IMG/VR virus record: IMGVR_UViG_2548876964_000002
Length of the DNA stretch: 10,633 bases
Source: a virus
Lineage: Duplodnaviria > Heunggongvirae > Uroviricota > Caudoviricetes
Reading direction: 5' to 3' (one strand)
The position numbers were made by a program, and so were the translations under genes. Below the pieces are notes generated by a model, which did no database searches, was not told the origin of the DNA, and worked only from the letters and a program-made list of their open reading frames with translations. The first letter of the stretch is position 1, and every line of letters starts with the position of its first letter. Shown in pieces: positions 3,359-10,633 of this stretch.

Positions 3359-4018
3359 ATGAAAATGAAATGGTATGAACTGGCTAGATCCAGAATGAAA
3401 GAGCTCGGCATAACTCAAGAGAAGTTAGCCGAAGAGCTTGGTATGACGCAGGGTGGAATTGGTCACTGGTTGCGCGGATCTCGTCATCCATCTCTTGACG
3501 AGATTGGTGTGGTGTTTAAATACCTTGGTATTGATAACGTCTCATTCAACCACGACGGTACATTTTCACCTGTTGGCGAATACTCATCTGCCCCCGTTAA
3601 AAAACAATATGAGTACCCTGTTTTTTCTCATGTTCAGGCCGGTATGTTCTCGCCTGAGCTTAGAACCTTTACCAAAGGTGATGCGGAGAGATGGGTCAGC
3701 ACAACCAAAAAAGCCAGTGATTGTGCGTTTTGGCTTGAAGTTGAAGGTAATTCCATGACCGCGCCAACAGGATCCAAGCCAAGCTTTCCTGACGGGATGT
3801 TAATTCTCGTTGACCCTGAGCAGGCTGTTGAGCCAGGTGATTTCTGCATAGCCAGACTTGGTGGTGACGAGTTTACCTTCAAGAAACTGATCAGGGATAG
3901 CGGTCAGGTGTTCCTACAACCACTAAACCCGCAATATCCAATGATTCCATGCAATGATAGCTGTTCCGTAGTAGGGAAAGTTATCGCCAGCCAGTGGCCT
4001 GAAGAGACATTTAGTTAA
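3359..4018 (+). CDS. cI: CI-type prophage repressor with LexA/S24-like autocleavage domain
   Basis: C-terminal ~135 aa ([36 protein letters not shown]...[12 protein letters not shown]) matches the lambda CI C-terminal domain as recalled, almost residue for residue. N-terminal HTH ([22 protein letters not shown]) is unlike lambda. Start is ambiguous among ATGs at 3359, 3365 and 3317; 3359/3365 are favoured. Confidence 0.9.
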
Positions 4019-4050
4019 CAGCCTCACCACTCTAAAACACACAACAATAA

Positions 4051-4078
4051 CCCGACCTTAGCGTCGGGTTTTCTTTTT
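4051..4078 (+). terminator. Rho-independent terminator after cI
   Basis: Stem cccgac/gtcggg with a 6-nt loop, followed by ttttcttttt, about 33 nt past the cI stop. No rexA/rexB-like ORFs lie between cI and PL. Confidence 0.65.
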
Positions 4079-4144
4079 CCAAAATATAAACCCATTAAAT
4101 ACAAAGCGTTATAAAAAACTAAACCATATTTAGAACATTTTGTA

Positions 4145-4694: not shown

Positions 4695-4781
4695 ATGGAA
4701 GAAGAATTTGAAGAGTTCGAAGAGCATCCGCAGGATGTGATGGAACAATACCAGGACTATCCGTATGACTACGACTACTGA
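4695..4781 (+). CDS. Small hyper-acidic peptide (28 aa), lambda orf28-like
   Basis: MEEEFEEFEEHPQDVMEQYQDYPYDYDY, preceded by GAGGTGAG Shine-Dalgarno; the 3' end overlaps the ral start. Same position and size as the small ORF recalled between N and ral in lambda. Under the track's length cutoff. Confidence 0.5.
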   Translation: MEEEFEEFEEHPQDVMEQYQDYPYDYDY

Positions 4782-4965
4782 TAAAAATCAATGGTGTGGA
4801 CAATTCAAGCGATGCAATGGATGCAAGCTGCAATCGGAATGCATGGTTAAGCCTGAAGAAATGTTTCCTGTAATGGAAGATGGGAAATATGTCGATAAAT
4901 GGGCAATACGAACGACGGCAATGATTGCCAGAGAACTTGGTAAACTGAACAACAAGGCTGCCTGA
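4765..4965 (+). CDS. ral: Ral restriction-alleviation protein (66 aa)
   Basis: MTTTTDKNQWCGQFKRCNGCKLQSECMVKPEEMFPVMEDGKYVDKWAIRTTAMIARELGKLNNKAA matches the lambda Ral sequence as recalled, including the Cys-rich motif. Confidence 0.8.
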   Translation: MTTTTDKNQWCGQFKRCNGCKLQSECMVKPEEMFPVMEDGKYVDKWAIRTTAMIARELGKLNNKAA

Positions 4966-5030: not shown

Positions 5031-5501
5031 ATGACAAAATCATGGAGCGTACCTTTTCCTGAATCAGAAACTGAACATGATGGAATGCCTGTTTTCTGGA
5101 GATTCCAAGCGACAGTTGAAGAAGATGGAATCAAAATATTCGCACTTCAATATATAGCTTTTCATCAGACAGATCATTATGCATGGTTGGTTCCTGCGCA
5201 TTGGATTGTTAATTTTAAACCAGCACCAAATCAGTGGTTACAGGAATGGAAACAAAGGAGAAATAGATATGCAATTAAGAAAGTAGCAAAAAATGCCGAA
5301 AGATCTTTTGCATTCCCGACGAAGAAACTTGCCATTGAAAGTTTATTGCGCCGGAAGAAGTACCATTTAATGAGAATCAAACAAGATTTGGCTGTTGTAT
5401 CAACTCTTGTTGATGGGATGAAGAATATTGATACATCAATACCAGATATTGAATATAACTTTGGACACAACCAAGAAACAGAAAATTGGGTGTTTTATTA
5501 G
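5031..5501 (+). CDS. Hypothetical protein (156 aa), visibly AT-rich, moron-like, no recognised family
   Basis: Clean ORF with GAGGTGAG Shine-Dalgarno and no predicted membrane segments. Composition is clearly more AT-rich than its neighbours by eye (not computed). Sits at the sieB / P22 gene 17 position and is bracketed by terminators at 4956-4982 and 5606-5631. Confidence 0.7.
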   Translation: MTKSWSVPFPESETEHDGMPVFWRFQATVEEDGIKIFALQYIAFHQTDHYAWLVPAHWIVNFKPAPNQWLQEWKQRRNRYAIKKVAKNAERSFAFPTKKLAIESLLRRKKYHLMRIKQDLAVVSTLVDGMKNIDTSIPDIEYNFGHNQETENWVFY

Positions 5502-5515
5502 TACGAATAAGCACT

Positions 5516-5543
5516 GTGTATTCATTCCAACGAGTGAATACAC
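5516..5543. repeat. Perfect 9-bp inverted repeat (GTGTATTCA ... TGAATACAC) with 10-nt spacer
   Basis: Seen directly, 15 nt after the stop of the 156-aa gene. No T-run on either strand, so it is not a standard intrinsic terminator. Confidence 0.5.
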
Positions 5544-5605
5544 GGAGCAATGTCGCTCGTAACTAAACAGGAGCCGACTTGTTCTGATTATTGGAAATCT
5601 TCTTT

Positions 5606-5631
5606 GCCCTCCAGTGTGAGGGCCTTTTTAT
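5606..5631 (+). terminator. Rho-independent terminator upstream of cIII
   Basis: Stem gccctc/gagggc, loop cagtgt, then ctttttat. Confidence 0.6.
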
Positions 5632-5695
5632 ATGCATACCAATAACGCTTCACTCGAGGCGTTTTCGTTATGCAATCAAACAGAAGGAGCATCCT

Positions 5696-5866
5696 ATGCA
5701 ACAGTTCGCTATTGCAGGGGCGGCATCGGTTCGCCCTTTCAACCCGATTTTATCGGTACAGCATTCACGAAAAAATATTTTAACCGGAGCAGACTTTAAA
5801 CAACCAAGAATGAAAAGCTTGCTCGAAAAGCTTTGGGATATTTTGAAACAACAAGGCCGCCCATGA
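5696..5866 (+). CDS. cIII: CIII-like protein (FtsH inhibitor, 56 aa)
   Basis: MQQFAIAG...LLEKLWDILKQQGRP parallels the recalled lambda CIII (MQYAIAG...LIDILNQPGVP). GAAGGAG Shine-Dalgarno before the ATG at 5696. The track's upstream start at 5591 spans the terminator and is rejected. Confidence 0.75.
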   Translation: MQQFAIAGAASVRPFNPILSVQHSRKNILTGADFKQPRMKSLLEKLWDILKQQGRP

Positions 5867-6033
5867 GTTTTACAGATAACTGGTCAGACGAAGAATTCAT
5901 TCGTCAGATGAAAGAATTAATCGGTAACGAAGGAGATATTCATGTCACTTGCAACCACCGTGAAGGAGAGCAAGTTACAGAGACGCATGTACACGCAGCA
6001 GGCGTTAATGTATCGCCAGAAGGGAGATCGTGA
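5863..6033 (+). CDS. Small protein at the kil position (56 aa); possible Kil-like host division inhibitor
   Basis: ATG overlaps the cIII stop (ATGA), so the two are translationally coupled. Assigned by gene order only (cIII then kil then erf in P22-like phages); sequence not recognised. Confidence 0.45.
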   Translation: MSFTDNWSDEEFIRQMKELIGNEGDIHVTCNHREGEQVTETHVHAAGVNVSPEGRS

Positions 6034-6122
6034 AGGTGTTCGCGTATTTTTAAATGCGGCAAAGACTGAAGTATTAAATCAGCGTTATTTCCTTGGGCCA
6101 TGTCCATTCTGAGAACAATCAT

Positions 6123-6728
6123 ATGAGCAAAGAATTTTACGCAAGACTGGCAGCTATTCAGGAAAATCTGAACGCGCCCAAGAATCAGTACAACTCATTC
6201 GGTAAATATAAATACAGAAGCTGCGAAGACATTCTTGAAGGCGTTAAGCCGTTACTGAATGGTCTGTTTTTATCAATCAGCGATGAAGTTGTGTTGATTG
6301 GTAATCGGTATTACGTGAAAGCCACGGCAACTATTACCGATGGCGAAAACAGTCATACGGCAACCGCTCTTGCACGAGAGGAAGAAAGCAAGAAAGGAAT
6401 GGATTCTGCACAAGTTACGGGAGCTACAAGCTCTTATGCACGCAAGTATTGCCTCAATGGTTTGTTCGGCATTGATGATGCGAAAGATGCAGATACAGAC
6501 GAGCATAAACATCAGCAGAACGCAGCAGCAAAGCAATCAAAACCATCACCTACACCTGAACAGGTTCTAAAAGCATTCACTGACGCAGCATTGCAGAAAA
6601 ACACCGTAGAAGAGCTTAAACAGGCGTTCGCCAAAGCGTGGAAGATGCTCGAAGGCACACCGGAGCAGCACAAAGCGCAGGACGTTTACAACATCAGACG
6701 AGACGAATTAGAAGGAGCGGCTGCTTAA
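6123..6728 (+). CDS. erf: Erf-family single-strand annealing recombinase
   Basis: N-terminal two thirds (MSKEFYARLAAIQENLNAPKNQYNSFGKYKYRSCEDILEGVKPLL...GATSSYARKYCLNGLFGIDDAKDAD) closely matches P22 Erf as recalled; the C-terminal third diverges. Start set at the internal ATG at 6123. Confidence 0.9.
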   Translation: MSKEFYARLAAIQENLNAPKNQYNSFGKYKYRSCEDILEGVKPLLNGLFLSISDEVVLIGNRYYVKATATITDGENSHTATALAREEESKKGMDSAQVTGATSSYARKYCLNGLFGIDDAKDADTDEHKHQQNAAAKQSKPSPTPEQVLKAFTDAALQKNTVEELKQAFAKAWKMLEGTPEQHKAQDVYNIRRDELEGAAA

Positions 6729-7111
6729 TGGCACATTCGATTACTGTAAGACTAAACAAGCCCGCAAGAGAGTTTCAGGCCGGGGAAAATATCGGATTCA
6801 ACATCCGTGCTGGCGTTCAGTATTACGATCGCCAGACAAAAAAGAAAGAATGGACAAACTACAACGCCGTTGTATTTGCCAAGCCGGGAGCGCAAGCGGA
6901 TTACTACCGTAGTGTTCTTGTTGAAGGTGGCATTGTAGAAATTACCGGAGAAAACATCAGGGTTGATGTTTATCAGGGGCAAAATGGTCAATCAATCACT
7001 CTTGAATTACTGAATGCAAAGATTGGATTTGCAGCTTCAGGAAATGGCCCGCAGCAGCAAAGTAGTAACCAGCAGAACACCCCTGTATACGACGATTCCA
7101 TCCCATTCTGA
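6728..7111 (+). CDS. Phage single-stranded DNA-binding protein-like (127 aa)
   Basis: ATG overlaps the erf stop (TAATG). Gln/Gly-rich linker and acidic tail ending DDSIPF, resembling the SSB C-terminal DDDIPF tip. Start set at the internal ATG at 6728. Confidence 0.65.
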   Translation: MAHSITVRLNKPAREFQAGENIGFNIRAGVQYYDRQTKKKEWTNYNAVVFAKPGAQADYYRSVLVEGGIVEITGENIRVDVYQGQNGQSITLELLNAKIGFAASGNGPQQQSSNQQNTPVYDDSIPF

Positions 7112-7134
7112 TTTAGAAAAATAAGGATTTAATT

Positions 7135-7428
7135 ATGCCAGCGCCTCTGTATGGTGCGGATGACCCGCGCCGCTGTTCCGGCAATTCCGTATCGGAGGTG
7201 CTGGATAAATTCAGGAAAAATTACGACCGGATAATGTCGCTACCGCAGGAAACAAAAGAGGAAAAGGAATTTCGCCACTGCGTATGGCTTGCAGAGAAAG
7301 AAGAACGCGAGCGAATTTACCAGACATCAATCCGACCATTCCGCAAAGCCACATATACCCACTTCCCTGAAATTGACCCGCGCCTGCGTAATTACCGCTC
7401 ACGCTATGGCGCTATCAGTAATAACTGA
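7135..7428 (+). CDS. Hypothetical protein (97 aa); possible Abc2-like anti-RecBCD protein
   Basis: AAGGA Shine-Dalgarno; follows the erf-ssb module, where P22-like phages carry abc genes, and the size fits Abc2. Sequence identity could not be verified from memory. Confidence 0.6.
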
Positions 7429-7438
7429 GGAATTTACC

Positions 7439-7606
7439 ATGAGAGGACTTGCATACAATCCCAGCATTCTTCCGGCAGAAATGATTATTCGCCAGCGCGT
7501 AAAGCCAATGCCATCGAGAGAGGAATTACTTAAGAGAAATTCTTTTCCGTCAGTAAATCAAAACAAATATCTGAATGCGATGTTGCGTAAAGGAGGCAAG
7601 CAGTGA
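7439..7606 (+). CDS. Hypothetical small protein (55 aa)
   Basis: GAGGA Shine-Dalgarno before the ATG at 7439; stop overlaps the next start (GTGA). The track's longer 7289 ORF is treated as an out-of-frame overlap with the previous gene. Confidence 0.5.
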
Positions 7607-7902
7607 GTGTATGTCTTATTGATAAACGTCGACGTGGGCAACAAATACCATCTGTTGAAATGCCGAATCACACATGGTTTTGCGTACTTGATATCGATGG
7701 TATGGATACGTTGGTTGACACTCGTCATTACTGCGATACCGCAACAGCTACTCCGGCGAAAGCAAAGAAAATTGCTGCTCTGATAGAAAACTGGACTCCA
7801 CCTGATGGTTGGTGCAATGGGAATGATCGAGATTGGCATGAAAAAATGAAGGGCTATATCTGCGATTTCTTACGTAAATGCAACGGATTCAGGGTGATGT
7901 GA
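7603..7902 (+). CDS. Hypothetical protein (99 aa), Cys/Trp-rich
   Basis: GTG start at 7603 with AAGGAGG 6 nt upstream; coupled to the preceding ORF. No family recognised. Confidence 0.6.
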
Positions 7903-7903
7903 C

Positions 7904-8458
7904 ATGAACAAGATTGACTATCAGGCACTGCGTGCCAAGGCAGAAAAAGCAACGTGTGGTGAGTGGTCGCTCGAATATGGAGAGGAGAGATTTGATGCTG
8001 GTGATGCGCTAATTCATCGTGAAGTTGTTGGATATCTTCCCATTTGCAGAATTGAAGGAGCGCATCCTGAAAGCGGTTTCGATGAAGATTTCCAGATGGA
8101 ACAGCAGGCCAATGCTGAATTTATTGCTGCCTTTAATCCAAAGGTTGCTTTGGCACTGCTGGATGAACGGGAAAGAAACCAGCAATACATCAAACGCCGC
8201 GACCAGGAGAACGAGGATATTGCGCTAACGGTAGGGAAGCTGCGCGTTGAGCTTGAAGCAGAAAAACAGCGGGCAAAAGTTCTATTTATGGAAAATGCTC
8301 GGCTTAAGTCAGGCATAGCCGGTCTGATACACCTCGGTATTCGATATGCAGATGTTGAGGTCATGAAAATTGCTGGAGATGCCCAGCTTTCTACCCCATG
8401 CACTGACAGCATCATAAACAGCATTGCAACAGGCATTCGCATCAAAGGAGGTGAGTAA
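7904..8458 (+). CDS. Ead/Ea22-like family protein (184 aa)
   Basis: N-terminus MNKIDYQALRAKAEKATCGEWS and internal ANAEFIAAFNPKVALALLDE resemble the Ead/Ea22-like family common in lambdoid early regions (from recall); coiled-coil-like central segment. Confidence 0.65.
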   Translation: MNKIDYQALRAKAEKATCGEWSLEYGEERFDAGDALIHREVVGYLPICRIEGAHPESGFDEDFQMEQQANAEFIAAFNPKVALALLDERERNQQYIKRRDQENEDIALTVGKLRVELEAEKQRAKVLFMENARLKSGIAGLIHLGIRYADVEVMKIAGDAQLSTPCTDSIINSIATGIRIKGGE

Positions 8459-8634
8459 TGCGTGTGGCATGTATCGGCTTGTTACCGTACCCGACTCGTT
8501 TTTGGGCTTCTGCGCTAATTGCAAAGCCGCATGTCCTGATGGCTGACAACATCATCCCGGCACCAAAGCGCCGCCATACCGGTATTGCATCGGCACGACG
8601 AGCAGCAAAGAAACGCAGGAGAGCAAAACGATGA
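8458..8634 (+). CDS. Hypothetical small, highly basic protein (58 aa)
   Basis: ATG overlaps the previous stop (TAATG) with AAAGGAGG upstream. Ends in a basic tail ARRAAKKRRRAKR. Under the track's length cutoff. Confidence 0.45.
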   Translation: MRVACIGLLPYPTRFWASALIAKPHVLMADNIIPAPKRRHTGIASARRAAKKRRRAKR

Positions 8635-8819
8635 AAAACCGTAAAGCAAAGATTCTGTTAGTTCGTAGAAACGCTCCTGGCGTCTGGCAGTGGGTGAGAC
8701 TCAGCAACCGACGGGTGGGGTTAATGAAACATTACGGGATGATGGATTGTGGTTTTTGCAAAAAGCCCAGCGCGGCGCAAAACCGCTGGAAAAACCACTT
8801 GCGTACTAAAGGAGAGTGA
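8631..8819 (+). CDS. Hypothetical small basic protein (62 aa)
   Basis: ATG overlaps the previous stop (ATGA); contains a CGFC motif. Confidence 0.5.
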   Translation: MKNRKAKILLVRRNAPGVWQWVRLSNRRVGLMKHYGMMDCGFCKKPSAAQNRWKNHLRTKGE

Positions 8820-8820
8820 T

Positions 8821-9030
8821 ATGGCTATTGCCGCAAGTTACACCATGCATCTCTATTGTGACTGCCGCCAGTGTACGGAAGGTGTATATCCAGTGCCAGA
8901 CTTCGGAGAGTATATCGGCACGTCATGGGCTGGTTGTGCAAAAGAGGCGCGTAAGGATGGCTGGCGAATAAGCAAAGACAAAACACGTGCTTTTGCGCCT
9001 GGGCATAAAGTTTTGAGGATTAACAAATGA
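8821..9030 (+). CDS. Hypothetical small Cys-rich protein (69 aa), possible zinc-binding
   Basis: AGGAG Shine-Dalgarno before the ATG at 8821; motif CDCRQC plus a further Cys. Start set at the internal ATG. Confidence 0.55.
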   Translation: MAIAASYTMHLYCDCRQCTEGVYPVPDFGEYIGTSWAGCAKEARKDGWRISKDKTRAFAPGHKVLRINK

Positions 9031-9830
9031 CCACTATTACCAGAGAACAAGCTCTGAAAATTATTGAGGCAGCCGATGAGGTTATTAGTGCGCTTGCCGG
9101 AACTAACGAGGATGTTCACCCTGGTAGCGATAACATGCTACGCCTGTGGGATGACCTGAATGACCGTTACGCGCCGCCGGAAGTTGTGCGTGAGCTGGCA
9201 CGGATTGCGCTGGCATCGTTGGAAGCAAAACCAATAGGTGCATTCCACATTGCAGAACAGCAAGTTGACGGCACAAGTGACTACCTCAAGGATGGAGAAT
9301 GGCCTATTGATAATGGGACAATTGAAGTATACGCCGCCCCTCCAGTGCCAGTAGTACCTGAAGAAAAACCAATGCCTAACCCTCTTAGCATGTACGCGGT
9401 CGATGCTGTTGCCGCTATTGCAGAGGTGAGAGGCTGGAACGCCTGCCGCGCCGCCATGCTTCATGGTGCCGAACCTGTAAGCCAAACTTACAAGTCACAA
9501 CACACGCAGTTTGAACAAGTTGCTGACCTCTACGAAATGCAATTTGATGACGGTCGCACTTGTGCCTTTCACACTGATGCGCAAAAGGCTGCGCAATGGC
9601 TTCAGGCATGCGACGGAAACAGGGTTCAGGAATACGTGAAGCTGGAGCGATTGCGTAATGCGCTATCGGGCAACTCTCCGGTAACTCCGGATGGTTGGGT
9701 TATGGTGCCGAAGGAACCAACTCAGGCCATGATTAAAGCGTGGCTATCAGAGATTGCTAACTTTCGCGGTCATGCTGCTGGTTACAGGGCTGCTCTTGAG
9801 GCAGCACCACAGGAGGTTAACCGTGGCTAA
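9027..9830 (+). CDS. Hypothetical protein (267 aa), early-region protein of unknown function
   Basis: ATG overlaps the previous stop (ATGA). Long clean ORF with Pro-rich central linker (PPVPVVPEEKPMP) separating two domains. Confidence 0.75.
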   Translation: MTTITREQALKIIEAADEVISALAGTNEDVHPGSDNMLRLWDDLNDRYAPPEVVRELARIALASLEAKPIGAFHIAEQQVDGTSDYLKDGEWPIDNGTIEVYAAPPVPVVPEEKPMPNPLSMYAVDAVAAIAEVRGWNACRAAMLHGAEPVSQTYKSQHTQFEQVADLYEMQFDDGRTCAFHTDAQKAAQWLQACDGNRVQEYVKLERLRNALSGNSPVTPDGWVMVPKEPTQAMIKAWLSEIANFRGHAAGYRAALEAAPQEVNRG

Positions 9831-10107
9831 CCTGCAACTTGCCGTCAAAGGTGAATACTTCGATGCCATGATTCGCGGAGAGAAAACAGAAGAGTATCGC
9901 CTGTGTAATGACTACTGGAATAAGCGAATTATGTTCCGGGAGTATGACCGCCTGATTATCACAAAGGGATATCCGAAGCGCGACGACTCCAGCCGCAGAA
10001 TAGACGTCCCGTATGACGGATATGAAATCAAGACAATCACACATCCCCACTTCGGCGATAAACCGGTAAAGGTGTTCGCGATAAATGTGAATATCGGCAA
10101 TGAATAA
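9823..10107 (+). CDS. Hypothetical protein (94 aa), ASCH/PUA-like fold suspected
   Basis: GTG start at 9823 with AGGAGG 6 nt upstream, overlapping the previous stop. N-terminal LAVKGEYFDAMIRGEKTEEYR resembles the ASCH-domain signature by pattern only. Confidence 0.55.
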   Translation: MANLQLAVKGEYFDAMIRGEKTEEYRLCNDYWNKRIMFREYDRLIITKGYPKRDDSSRRIDVPYDGYEIKTITHPHFGDKPVKVFAINVNIGNE

Positions 10108-10110
10108 CAA

Positions 10111-10168
10111 CCCTCGCATTTGCGGGGATTTCTTTTATCTGAACTCGCTACGGCGAGTTTTGTTTTAT
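10111..10168 (+). terminator. Tandem rho-independent terminators ending the early-left operon
   Basis: First: ccctcgc / gcgggg with one bulge, then atttcttttat (10111-10138). Second: perfect 7-bp stem aactcgc/gcgagtt, loop tacg, then ttgttttat (10142-10168). Confidence 0.6.
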
Positions 10169-10248
10169 GGAGATGATTATGGTCTGTTCAACATTCAACC
10201 ATCTAACGTTACAGAAATACCAGCCAGACCCTGAAGATTTATGCTCAC

Positions 10249-10633
10249 TGAACCGCCCCGGAAATCCTGGAGACTAAACTCCCTGAGAAAGAGGTAAACA
10301 GGATGACTAAAAATACTCGTTTTTCCCCCGAAGTCCGTCAGCGGGCGATTCGTATGGTTCTGGAAAGTCAGGATGAATATGACTCACAGTGGGCGGCAAT
10401 TTGTTCCATTGCCCCAAAGATTGGCTGTACGCCGGAGACTCTGCGTGTCTGGGTTCGCCAGCATGAGCGGGATACCGGGGGCGGTGATGGTGGGCTCACC
10501 AGCGCTGAACGTCAGCGTCTGAAAGAGCTGGAACGTGAAAATCGTGAACTGCGCCGCAGTAACGATATCCTTCGCCAGGCTTCCGCTTATTTTGCGAAGG
10601 CGGAGTTCGACCGCCTCTGGAAAAAATGATGCC
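10249..10633 (+). mobile_element. IS3-family insertion sequence (IS629/IS1203-like), left end and OrfA; continues past the window
   Basis: Left terminus begins TGAACCGCCCCGG at 10249. OrfA follows, and ATGATGCC at 10626 matches the recalled IS629 OrfB start (MMP...) in the overlapping frame. Confidence 0.8.
10303..10629 (+). CDS. IS3-family transposase OrfA (HTH plus leucine-zipper subunit)
   Basis: 108-aa [25 protein letters not shown]...[35 protein letters not shown] matches IS629-type OrfA as recalled. Confidence 0.9.

Follow-up and report, generated by a model that had tools for sequence, protein, structure and literature searches.

The window analysed here is a stretch of 10,633 nucleotides of viral DNA (IMG/VR record IMGVR_UViG_2548876964_000002), and our analysis focused on positions 7135-9030. 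This segment was a 100% match to an O111:H8 prophage adjoining sbcB, in which the gene order is cI, Ral, Erf, SSB-like gene, Abc2 ... ASCH, IS1203, xis-like HTH gene and int. An earlier note on this DNA had placed a chain of small ORFs in the lambdoid slot between the recombination genes and xis/int, and the gene order, with Erf and the SSB-like gene as the recombination genes, bears this placement out. The segment indeed holds seven same-strand ORFs (97, 55, 99, 184, 58, 62 and 69 aa), but the coupled string to which they belong is longer than the note had described and comprises 11 genes from erf (6123) to the ASCH gene (10107) (Table 1). The last three of the seven are referred to below as the orphans. 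The 127-aa SSB-like protein is named hypothetical in RefSeq. Relatives of the 267-aa gene carry DUF551, with a 331-aa DUF551 protein in the same position of the paralogous prophage of 11128.

Table 1. Genes and terminators of the coupled string, in positions of the window
Feature	Position	Strand	Basis
ERF-family recombinase, upstream member of the coupled string	6123..6728	+	RefSeq annotation of the identical region
SSB-like protein, 127 aa	6728..7111	+	phrog_44 single-strand DNA binding protein, E 1.6e-27
Abc2, anti-RecBCD protein 2, 97 aa	7135..7428	+	PF11043, E 4.3e-64; phrog_656
DUF2737 protein, 55 aa, pI 11.0	7439..7606	+	PF10930, E 9.2e-33; phrog_1117
DUF7739 protein, 99 aa, GTG start, 6 Cys	7603..7902	+	PF24881, E 5.6e-21; phrog_1239
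Ead/Ea22-family protein, 184 aa, acidic, pI 5.1	7904..8458	+	PF13935, E 8.5e-31
58-aa orphan	8458..8634	+	phrog_13831, E 1e-41
62-aa orphan	8631..8819	+	phrog_1380, E 6.4e-40
69-aa orphan, probable Cys3-His zinc-binding alpha/beta mini-domain	8821..9030	+	phrog_926
Acidic protein, 267 aa, pI 4.7, next coupled gene	9027..9830	+	phrog_60 and others
ASCH-domain gene, last of the string	9823..10107	+	RefSeq annotation; phrog_625
Two terminator-like hairpins closing the string	10112..10160	+	Promoter/terminator scan

The junctions between the ORFs were then mapped. The overlaps quoted in the earlier note were all located (GTGA at 7603-7606, TAATG at 8456-8460 and ATGA at 8631-8634), but its description of seven ORFs linked throughout by overlaps held only in part, as three internal junctions have spacers instead, of 10 nt (7429-7438), 1 nt (7903) and 1 nt (8820). 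A further ATGA (9027-9030) joins the 69-aa gene to the 267-aa gene, the erf stop overlaps the start of the SSB-like gene (TAATG), and the 267-aa and ASCH genes share an 8-nt overlap, GTGGCTAA. The start of the second ORF (DUF2737) is at 7439 (not at 7440). At most starts, a clear Shine-Dalgarno sequence (SD) lies 5-9 nt upstream, as a rule within the final 3-6 codons of the upstream gene; that of ea22 is weak (AGGGTG). The Ead/Ea22 gene ends in codons for IKGGE, which encode the SD of the 58-aa gene, and the protein ends K-G-G-E, K-G-E and R-R-R arise because the SD of the next gene is embedded in the final codons. In operons of this kind, such an imprint warns against reading too much into "poly-basic tails". 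About 160 related loci retain this junction design.

A promoter and terminator scan of positions 5500-10633 found a single promoter-like site, at 5869-5896 upstream of the chain, and none within the erf-to-ASCH string. Strong terminator-like hairpins flanked the string on either side (5606-5663 and 10112-10160) and occurred nowhere else in the scan, and Rfam had no match within the chain. With stops and starts adjacent, SDs placed in the upstream genes and internal promoters absent, each cistron is laid out for translational coupling.

The earlier note had headed the whole chain as of unknown function, which was overstated, since ORF1 is Abc2 and ORFs 2-4 belong to Pfam families. DUF2737 (112.3 bits against a cut-off of 25), DUF7739 (75.4 against 27) and Ead_Ea22 (107.8 against 27) all scored above the gathering cut-off. 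ORF1 matched PF11043 with 213.2 bits (cut-off 25) over residues 1-97 of 97. It resembles P22 Abc2 in having the same length and a position downstream of the Erf recombinase, and differs in setting, as the 127-aa SSB-like gene lies here between erf and abc2, in the place that abc1 occupies in P22. Along its full 97 residues the protein is near-identical to P22 Abc2 (PDB 8B1T/8B1U; E 9.5e-59 against chain A of 8B1T), so by sequence it is the RecBCD hijacker characterised in P22. In that phage, Abc2 binds to RecC and diverts RecBCD towards Erf, the recombinase of the phage, and its Pro68 is a PpiB site (PMC9836394); Pro68 is kept here, within the conserved "IRPFRK".

We next asked whether the small ORFs encode proteins. 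ORFs covered 99.9% of positions 7135-9030, compared with 18% ± 12% (maximum 76%) in 2000 shuffles. Normalised N/S, a crude count of site-alleles that ignores phylogeny, was 0.20-0.47 in the annotated frames of all seven ORFs and 0.95-2.4 in the other frames; it was 0.33 for DUF2737 in its own frame, and 0.33 for the 58-aa gene against 1.0-1.5 in its other frames. The ORFs were intact in almost all of the approximately 160 loci, so neither frameshifts nor loss of constraint in relatives spoke against the earlier note. These results show that each of the three orphans is a genuine protein subject to purifying selection. The ORFs are short, and the homologues of the 58-aa protein (at 3996-4103) and the 62-aa protein are unannotated in the original 933W record, as would be expected of chance ORFs or annotation artefacts; the coverage far above shuffles, the frame-specific constraint in all ORFs, the clear SDs and the presence of each exact orphan sequence on at least 1000 contigs, annotated in RefSeq as hypothetical proteins, make such an origin hardly credible for any of them.

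The earlier note had also named no family for the three proteins. They had no match to a characterised family, in agreement with the note, but they are catalogued in PHROG, where all three families are annotated as of unknown function, as well as in RefSeq. Searches of Pfam, NCBIfam, PADLOC and PDB sequences, and for the 69-aa protein of folds including BFVD, gave no characterised match to any of the three and no known inhibitor or defence component. Peptide strings and 933W locus names gave nothing in a full-text literature search, and the orphan peptides were absent from two accessory-gene screens with searchable supplements.

The 58-aa and 62-aa proteins were confirmed as basic, with a pI of about 12 each. 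The former (pI 12.0, net charge about +14) ends in an Arg/Lys-rich C-terminal tail, KRRHTGIASARRAAKKRRRAKR, and its gene shows an in-frame 21-nt (7-aa) deletion and alternation between ATG and GTG starts among its variants. A membrane protein or lipoprotein was rejected for it, as the maximum 19-residue hydropathy was 1.24 and Cys5 is Phe in some variants. Alignments of the 62-aa family (pI 11.6 and net charge about +14 for the protein here) showed an invariant N-terminus, MKNRKAK, a C-terminal motif, KPSAAQNRWKNH, and a variable middle; tandem paralogs are common. The AF2 model of the 62-aa protein had a pLDDT of only 60.8, too poor to justify a fold search. Among Pfam zinc fingers, zf-C2H2_jaz alone was matched, below threshold (E 0.091), and a zinc finger was rejected because C40 and C43 are replaced in many members. 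Among the orphan families, longer members were likewise discarded as clues to domain fusion, since they arose by deletion, duplication or fusion through a frameshift; only one member carries a fused HTH_17 domain, from which no conclusion was drawn. The composition of the 58-aa tail and of the 62-aa family ends is reminiscent of the arginine-rich-motif peptides of lambda and P22 N and HK022 Nun, a resemblance that offers no more than a lead. They differ from these in that no homology and no cognate RNA hairpin were found, and in that the basic stretch of the 58-aa protein is C-terminal and owes part of its sequence to the SD embedded there for the following gene.

This overlap between protein ends and SDs raises the question of whether the small ORFs are translational relays or mosaic-boundary sequences, which would serve ribosome hand-over or recombination and encode functionless peptides. 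Conserved C-terminal residues do coincide with the SD embedded for the next cistron, and the same boundary sequence (aaaggaggcaaccaGTG) stands before different genes. The 62-aa family varies greatly in its middle, rare variants (P0179 and P0184) read that part in another frame, and deletion and fusion variants are known. However, all three ORFs are under in-frame purifying selection, and the invariant residues of the 62-aa family are encoded by two to four different codons, those lying off the SD (N3, K5, A6, K7, L9, S25, N26, Q50, N51 and R52) varying in their synonymous codons. A hairpin, CCAGCG...CGCTGG, lies within the coding stretch for "PSAAQNRW" of the 62-aa gene; conservation at the DNA level only was rejected for the ends of this family, since a paralogous subtype has the same motif with different codons and lacks the hairpin. 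The fold and metal-ligand pattern of the 69-aa protein are also kept down to about 30% identity, which leaves peptides without function improbable.

The CDCRQC motif pointed out in the earlier note is present in the 69-aa protein, but it is only part of a conserved, probable zinc site that includes a distant His. The family shows a CxCxxC...H signature in which, across 74 sequences with a mean column identity of 32%, C13 and C18 are invariant and C15 and H62 are retained in 90% or more. The AF2 model was confident (pLDDT 82.6), and no fold match was found in PDB or BFVD. The four-ligand set in a compact predicted fold suggests that the 69-aa protein is probably a zinc-binding mini-domain. Lambda Orf73/TraR is a C4 zinc protein, and lambda Ea8.5 is a zinc finger fused to a homeodomain-like fold. 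The 69-aa protein is like both in size and region and has a conserved Cys/His ligand set, but it shows no sequence or fold similarity to them and its ligand pattern is unlike either.

The 69-aa family, which has no Pfam entry, comprises at least 1200 clusters at 50% identity and spans lytic and temperate phages of several families. Members were found in Ackermannviridae (Det7 gp132 and Limestonevirus), Rogunavirus AKS96 and Klebsiella siphophages, always within runs of small genes. The neighbours of remote homologues are mostly unannotated small genes, with a downstream DUF551 gene recurring once. That the family is maintained over several Ackermannviridae genera fits a stable function better than a part in an arms race, and finding its target would annotate more than 1000 protein clusters at once.

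To place the chain among known phages, we compared it with related early operons. [quoted passage not shown] It differs in that a P22-type Erf/Abc2 module stands here in place of Exo/Bet/Gam; the exo-xis genes orf60a, orf63, orf61 and orf73 are absent, no ORF of the chain matching the DUF1317, DUF1382 or TraR-like families, and lambda itself lacks all three orphans. A tblastn search against lambda aligned residues 51-123 of the Ead/Ea22 protein only, which indicates that a lambda-type Ea22 C-terminal domain is lacking. This protein had no PDB sequence match at E ≤ 0.01, the C-terminal domain of lambda Ea22 being covered if it is in the library.

In the "ea" regions of Sf6 (genes 21-25), HK620 (hkaG-hkaJ) and CUS-3, the first 1.0-1.1 kb (abc2, DUF2737 and the start of Ead/Ea22) was 93-96% identical to the chain, but the match extended no further than these 1.0-1.1 kb, about half of the segment, and no top match reached the cassette of 58-aa, 62-aa and 69-aa genes. 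In 933W, this cassette follows ea22 with 81-95% protein identity. The arrangement of Ea22, 58-aa gene, 62-aa family (one or two copies) and 69-aa gene recurs in Stx phages (933W and VT2-Sakai) and in P1-like phage-plasmids. Because P22-like phages match only the 5' half and the cassette matches Stx-type phages, the chain is a mosaic of two lineages, a P22-like 5' part and a Stx-phage-type cassette. With moderate confidence, we read the region as the distal, dispensable accessory segment (the "ea" or exo-xis region) of an early-left operon, belonging to a lambdoid prophage of E. coli O111; that it is an early-operon accessory chain encoding real proteins is very likely in our judgement. A region of this type is textbook and already annotated, and it leaves the understanding of the phage unchanged. 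The interest lies in three early proteins whose reality is clear, which abound in the prophages of pathogenic E. coli (Stx phages included) and which can be tested at little cost.

One role for the orphans is suggested by genes already studied in the exo-xis region. Ea22 is pro-lysogenic, Orf60a, Orf61 and Orf63 are pro-lytic, and Orf73 is a TraR-like RNA polymerase binder; Ea22, Orf63 and Orf73 are reported to be modulators of the lysis-lysogeny decision or of transcription, not anti-defence proteins (PMC8614690, PMC7093339). The orphans may similarly be lysis-lysogeny modulators instead of defence inhibitors. They lie in the same region; where upstream DNA was included, related loci, 933W among them, almost always have an Ea22-family gene directly ahead of the 58-aa and 62-aa genes; and the 58-aa and 62-aa families were found only in temperate elements, namely lambdoid phages and P1-like phage-plasmids. 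However, members of the 69-aa family are frequent among strictly lytic phages (Ackermannviridae and Rogunavirus), for which there is no lysogeny decision, and homology to Orf60a, Orf61, Orf63 or Orf73 was not found. We consider this role rather unlikely for the orphans.

A lysogen may also profit from genes of its prophage, and superinfection exclusion genes, a defence system or a small toxin-antitoxin pair are frequent in prophage accessory regions; some toxins resemble the 58-aa and 62-aa proteins in their small size and strong basicity. Expression in the lysogen finds little footing in the layout, as the cassette has no promoter-like site within it or shortly ahead of it and its genes sit in a repressor-controlled early operon. 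PADLOC gave no hits, and no hydrophobic segment would span a membrane (maximum KD19 1.24). Such a benefit is, if anything, slightly less probable than the relay function discussed above.

An early host-directed or counter-defence role of the orphans is plausible by analogy with their neighbours, as the same operon carries two known counter-defence genes, Ral (4765-4965) and Abc2, the first ORF of the chain. The gene products would be made only after infection or induction, as early proteins, and their targets would be macromolecules of the host or the phage. The conserved basic ends of the 58-aa and 62-aa proteins would most likely serve to bind nucleic acid or an acidic partner, and the 69-aa protein may be a mini-domain, stabilised by zinc, whose target is conserved throughout Enterobacterales, a breadth suggested by the presence of its family in strictly lytic phages as well. 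The earlier note had proposed the orphans as candidate inhibitors. Inhibition of host repair or host defence by them is a tentative reading to which we give somewhat less than an even chance. Its most specific form is speculative and correspondingly doubtful: the 69-aa protein would be a new Cys3-His zinc fold that inhibits an Enterobacterales-wide defence or repair factor, and the Ea22-linked pair of very basic 58-aa and 62-aa peptides would form a second counter-defence module, of temperate phages, that binds nucleic acid or an acidic host protein. DefenseFinder analysis of EHEC phages reported only anti-RM systems, Ral and Gam (PMC12502783), and at least three of those phages (phi296, phi346 and phi419) carry the orphan genes.

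The results showed that the segment holds seven plus-strand ORFs (97, 55, 99, 184, 58, 62 and 69 aa), as an earlier note on this DNA had described, and that ORFs cover 99.9% of it, compared with a mean of 18% and a maximum of 76% in 2000 shuffles. The three stop-start overlaps cited there (GTGA, TAATG and ATGA) were all found, together with an additional ATGA overlap, and the other junctions are gaps of 10, 1 and 1 nt. A clear Shine-Dalgarno (SD) sequence precedes most starts, while ea22 has only a weak one (AGGGTG). At most junctions the SD lies within the final codons of the preceding gene (AAAGGAGGcaagcaGTG, AAAGGAGGTGAgtaATG, gcAGGAGAgcaaaacgATG, AAAGGAGAgtgatATG), and the junction sequences are conserved in about 160 related loci irrespective of the upstream gene. 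Because these SD-bearing sequences encode them, the protein ends read K-G-G-K-Q, K-G-G-E, K-G-E and R-R-R-A-K-R. The poly-basic tail described for the 58-aa protein is present; its R-R-R part (CGC AGG AGA) coincides with the SD of the gene that follows. One boundary sequence (aaaggaggcaaccaGTG) stands before different genes among relatives, as would be expected of mosaic module boundaries.

Features in and around the chain of seven ORFs (window positions)
Feature	Position	Detail
Chain	7135-9030	plus strand
ral	4765-4965	plus strand; 66 aa, Ral-family antirestriction protein (RefSeq)
DUF7739 gene	7603-7902	GTG start within GTGA overlap
58-aa gene	8458-8634	
62-aa gene	8631-8819	
69-aa gene	8821-9030	
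GTGA overlap	7603-7606	
TAATG overlap	8456-8460	
ATGA overlap	8631-8634	
Additional ATGA overlap	9027-9030	
C-terminus RKGGKQ	7590-7606	encoded by next cistron's SD
C-terminus IKGGE	8441-8460	encoded by next cistron's SD
C-terminus RRRAKR	8613-8634	encoded by next cistron's SD
C-terminus TKGE	8802-8823	encoded by next cistron's SD
Coupled string	6123-10107	erf to ASCH gene
Promoter-like site	5869-5896	
Terminator-like hairpin	5606-5663	before string
Terminator-like match	8102-8117	weak, within ea22
Terminator-like hairpin	10112-10160	after string
117-aa ORF	9754-10104	longer ORF at the ASCH gene
ASCH gene	9823-10107	label from RefSeq
Gene remnant	~10179-10250	annotated
IS1203/IS629	10303-10633	start of element
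ALIL frameshift pseudoknot	10584-10633	of IS1203/IS629

The coupled string exceeds the chain, with 11 genes and six overlaps. We found a single promoter-like site in 5500-10633 and convincing terminator-like hairpins on either side of the string; the nine terminator-like matches in total are little in excess of shuffled sequence (5.5 ± 2.4). This architecture implies that the cassette (Ea22, then the 58-, 62- and 69-aa proteins) is switched on with the early operon when the phage infects or is induced, and stays silent in the lysogen. Small weight was given to the reading that these three orphans benefit the lysogen.

The whole 10.6-kb window is 100% identical to an E. coli O111:H8 prophage (e.g. 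NZ_CP077600.1) adjoining sbcB. Its RefSeq plus-strand order is a LexA-family repressor, the Ral antirestriction gene, small hypothetical genes, ERF recombinase, a 127-aa protein, a 'phage anti-RecBCD protein', DUF2737, three to four hypothetical proteins, ead/Ea22 and, at the end, the ASCH gene, IS1203, an HTH gene and integrase. Replication genes, cII and cro-like genes lie in the opposite orientation, and from this arrangement the chain lies within the early-left operon of a lambdoid prophage. Ral is a second known counter-defence gene of this operon. The IS3-family element IS1203/IS629 stands between the operon and the HTH and integrase genes and disrupts a gene. Although RefSeq gives the last gene of the string an ASCH label, the longer 117-aa ORF at this place gave no Pfam match at E≤0.1, its sole match being phrog_625, a family of unknown function. 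Comparison of the 1.9-kb chain with NC_013364.1 (1187092-1188987 and 2648963-2659212) showed 100% identity in two prophages of E. coli O111:H- 11128, one beside sbcB that matches the window and one by wrbA that carries lambda-type O/P replication genes and a Ser/Thr kinase; this suggests a recent exchange between co-resident prophages.

The earlier note had called the chain one of unknown function, which goes too far. ORF1, with the Erf gene upstream, is Abc2: the whole protein fits the PF11043 model (E 4.3e-64), and all 97 residues align with P22 Abc2 (PDB 8B1T; E 9.5e-59), Pro68 being retained. ORFs 2-4 belong to the Pfam families DUF2737, DUF7739 and Ead/Ea22. The Ea22 protein aligns with lambda Ea22 at residues 51-123 only, and a sequence search of solved structures gave no match for it. 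Six cysteines occur in the DUF7739 protein, which some RefSeq genomes label 'hypothetical' and others DUF7739.

The orphans had no sequence match in Pfam, NCBIfam, PADLOC or PDB. They match PHROG 13831, 1380 and 926 over their full length, all families of unknown function, and are hypothetical proteins in RefSeq; identical copies of each are found on at least 1000 contigs, named 'hypothetical' or 'prophage protein'. A full-text literature search with the peptide strings returned no paper, and two screens of phage accessory genes do not list the peptides in their supplements. We then counted distinct site-alleles in relatives taken from IMG/VR and from records of phages. The normalised non-synonymous/synonymous ratio in the annotated frame was 0.33 (58 aa), 0.47 (62 aa) and 0.20 (69 aa), like abc2 (0.41) and ea22 (0.30), and 0.95-1.7 in the two other frames; the count is crude and without phylogenetic correction, but its frame specificity is clear. 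One variant of the 58-aa gene (933W type) has lost 21 nt in frame, and the gene's start switches between ATG and GTG with the TAATG or TAGTG overlap maintained. The three orphans are real genes, and the readings that they are artefacts or pure translational relays carry small weight.

A survey of about 160 loci in many mosaic backgrounds showed a recurrent order: an Ea22-family gene, the 58-aa gene, one or two 62-aa-family genes, sometimes the 69-aa gene, and a 267-aa or DUF551-type gene. In 933W the cassette lies at 4876-3555, in the exo-xis region; the original record leaves the 58- and 62-aa homologues unannotated, and L0068, whose start is extended, corresponds to the 69-aa gene. Lambda has Ea22 alone. 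The P22-like phages Sf6, HK620 and CUS-3 match the first 1.0-1.1 kb of the chain, whereas Stx-type phages match its cassette part; the chain is therefore a mosaic. Homologues of the 58- and 62-aa proteins also occur on P1-like phage-plasmids (FO818745.1 (RCS47), MF356679.1 (D6) and the P1 variants MH422554.1 and MH445380.1), and the chain query matched 627 places on E. coli plasmids. Public variants (P0179, P0184, P0052, P0048, P0128, P0176) include 62-aa genes whose middle is in another frame before the frame is restored, a 62-69 fusion, a 69-aa tandem duplication and fusions that join the Ea22 N-terminus to the 62-aa protein.

The 58- and 62-aa proteins are strongly basic (pI 12.0 and 11.6, net charge about +14 each), with no membrane-spanning hydrophobic segment; their neighbours are acidic, Ea22 with a pI of 5.1 and the 267-aa protein with one of 4.7. 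The 62-aa family is confined to temperate phages of Escherichia, Salmonella and Yersinia and to P1-like phage-plasmids, and tandem paralogs joined by ATGA are common. N-terminal MKNRKAK-L, an internal S-N and C-terminal K-P-S-A-x-Q-N-R-W-K-N-H show little or no variation, while the middle of about 35 residues differs among subtypes. Invariant residues use two to four different codons each (for Q-N-R, CAA AAC CGC vs CAG AAC AGG by subtype), so the constraint is at the protein level. The AF2 model is poor (pLDDT 60.8). A zinc finger was ruled out, C40 and C43 not being conserved.

The 69-aa family is far broader. With tblastn, 427 phage records gave a match, among them phages of Salmonella, Klebsiella and Dickeya. 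The members in Ackermannviridae (Det7 gp132, Limestonevirus), Rogunavirus AKS96 and Klebsiella siphophages are without exception surrounded by a series of small genes that lack annotation. When 1.84 billion cluster representatives were searched with a profile, 1207 matched at E≤1e-3, of which 143 reached E≤1e-10; almost all of them stand alone, at 60-90 aa. Longer ones are deletions or fusions, with one exception carrying an HTH_17 domain. Across 74 sequences C13, C18 and W48 are invariant, and at least 90% of the sequences retain Y12, D14, C15, G33, A43, G47, A59, P60 and H62, which suggests a CxCxxC...H zinc site. The AF2 model is a compact beta-knuckle-beta-alpha-beta-beta fold (pLDDT 82.6).

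The orphans are very probably real early accessory proteins within a coupled operon. Because Abc2 and Ral share this operon, a host-directed or counter-defence role is a reasonable candidate, and inhibition of host defence or repair, in keeping with the earlier note's listing of the orphans as candidate inhibitors, is put forward tentatively. Against it, the studied genes of this region are developmental or transcriptional modulators, no link between the orphans and known inhibitors was found, and DefenseFinder, run by others on EHEC phages of which at least three carry orphan genes, reported anti-RM systems, Ral and Gam and nothing else. That the orphans modulate lysis-lysogeny instead seems rather unlikely, and the 69-aa family's presence in strictly lytic phages speaks against a lysogeny-specific role for that protein. 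As a hypothesis, the earlier interpretation of the chain is partly supported; both the region and the genes in it were known and had been annotated before. The most rewarding experimental target is the 69-aa zinc-motif family. A remote homologue (29% identity) in L172 (GCA_002035265.1, 5001-5910) is directly followed by a DUF551 protein, as in the window's relatives, a hint that the two families may be functionally connected.
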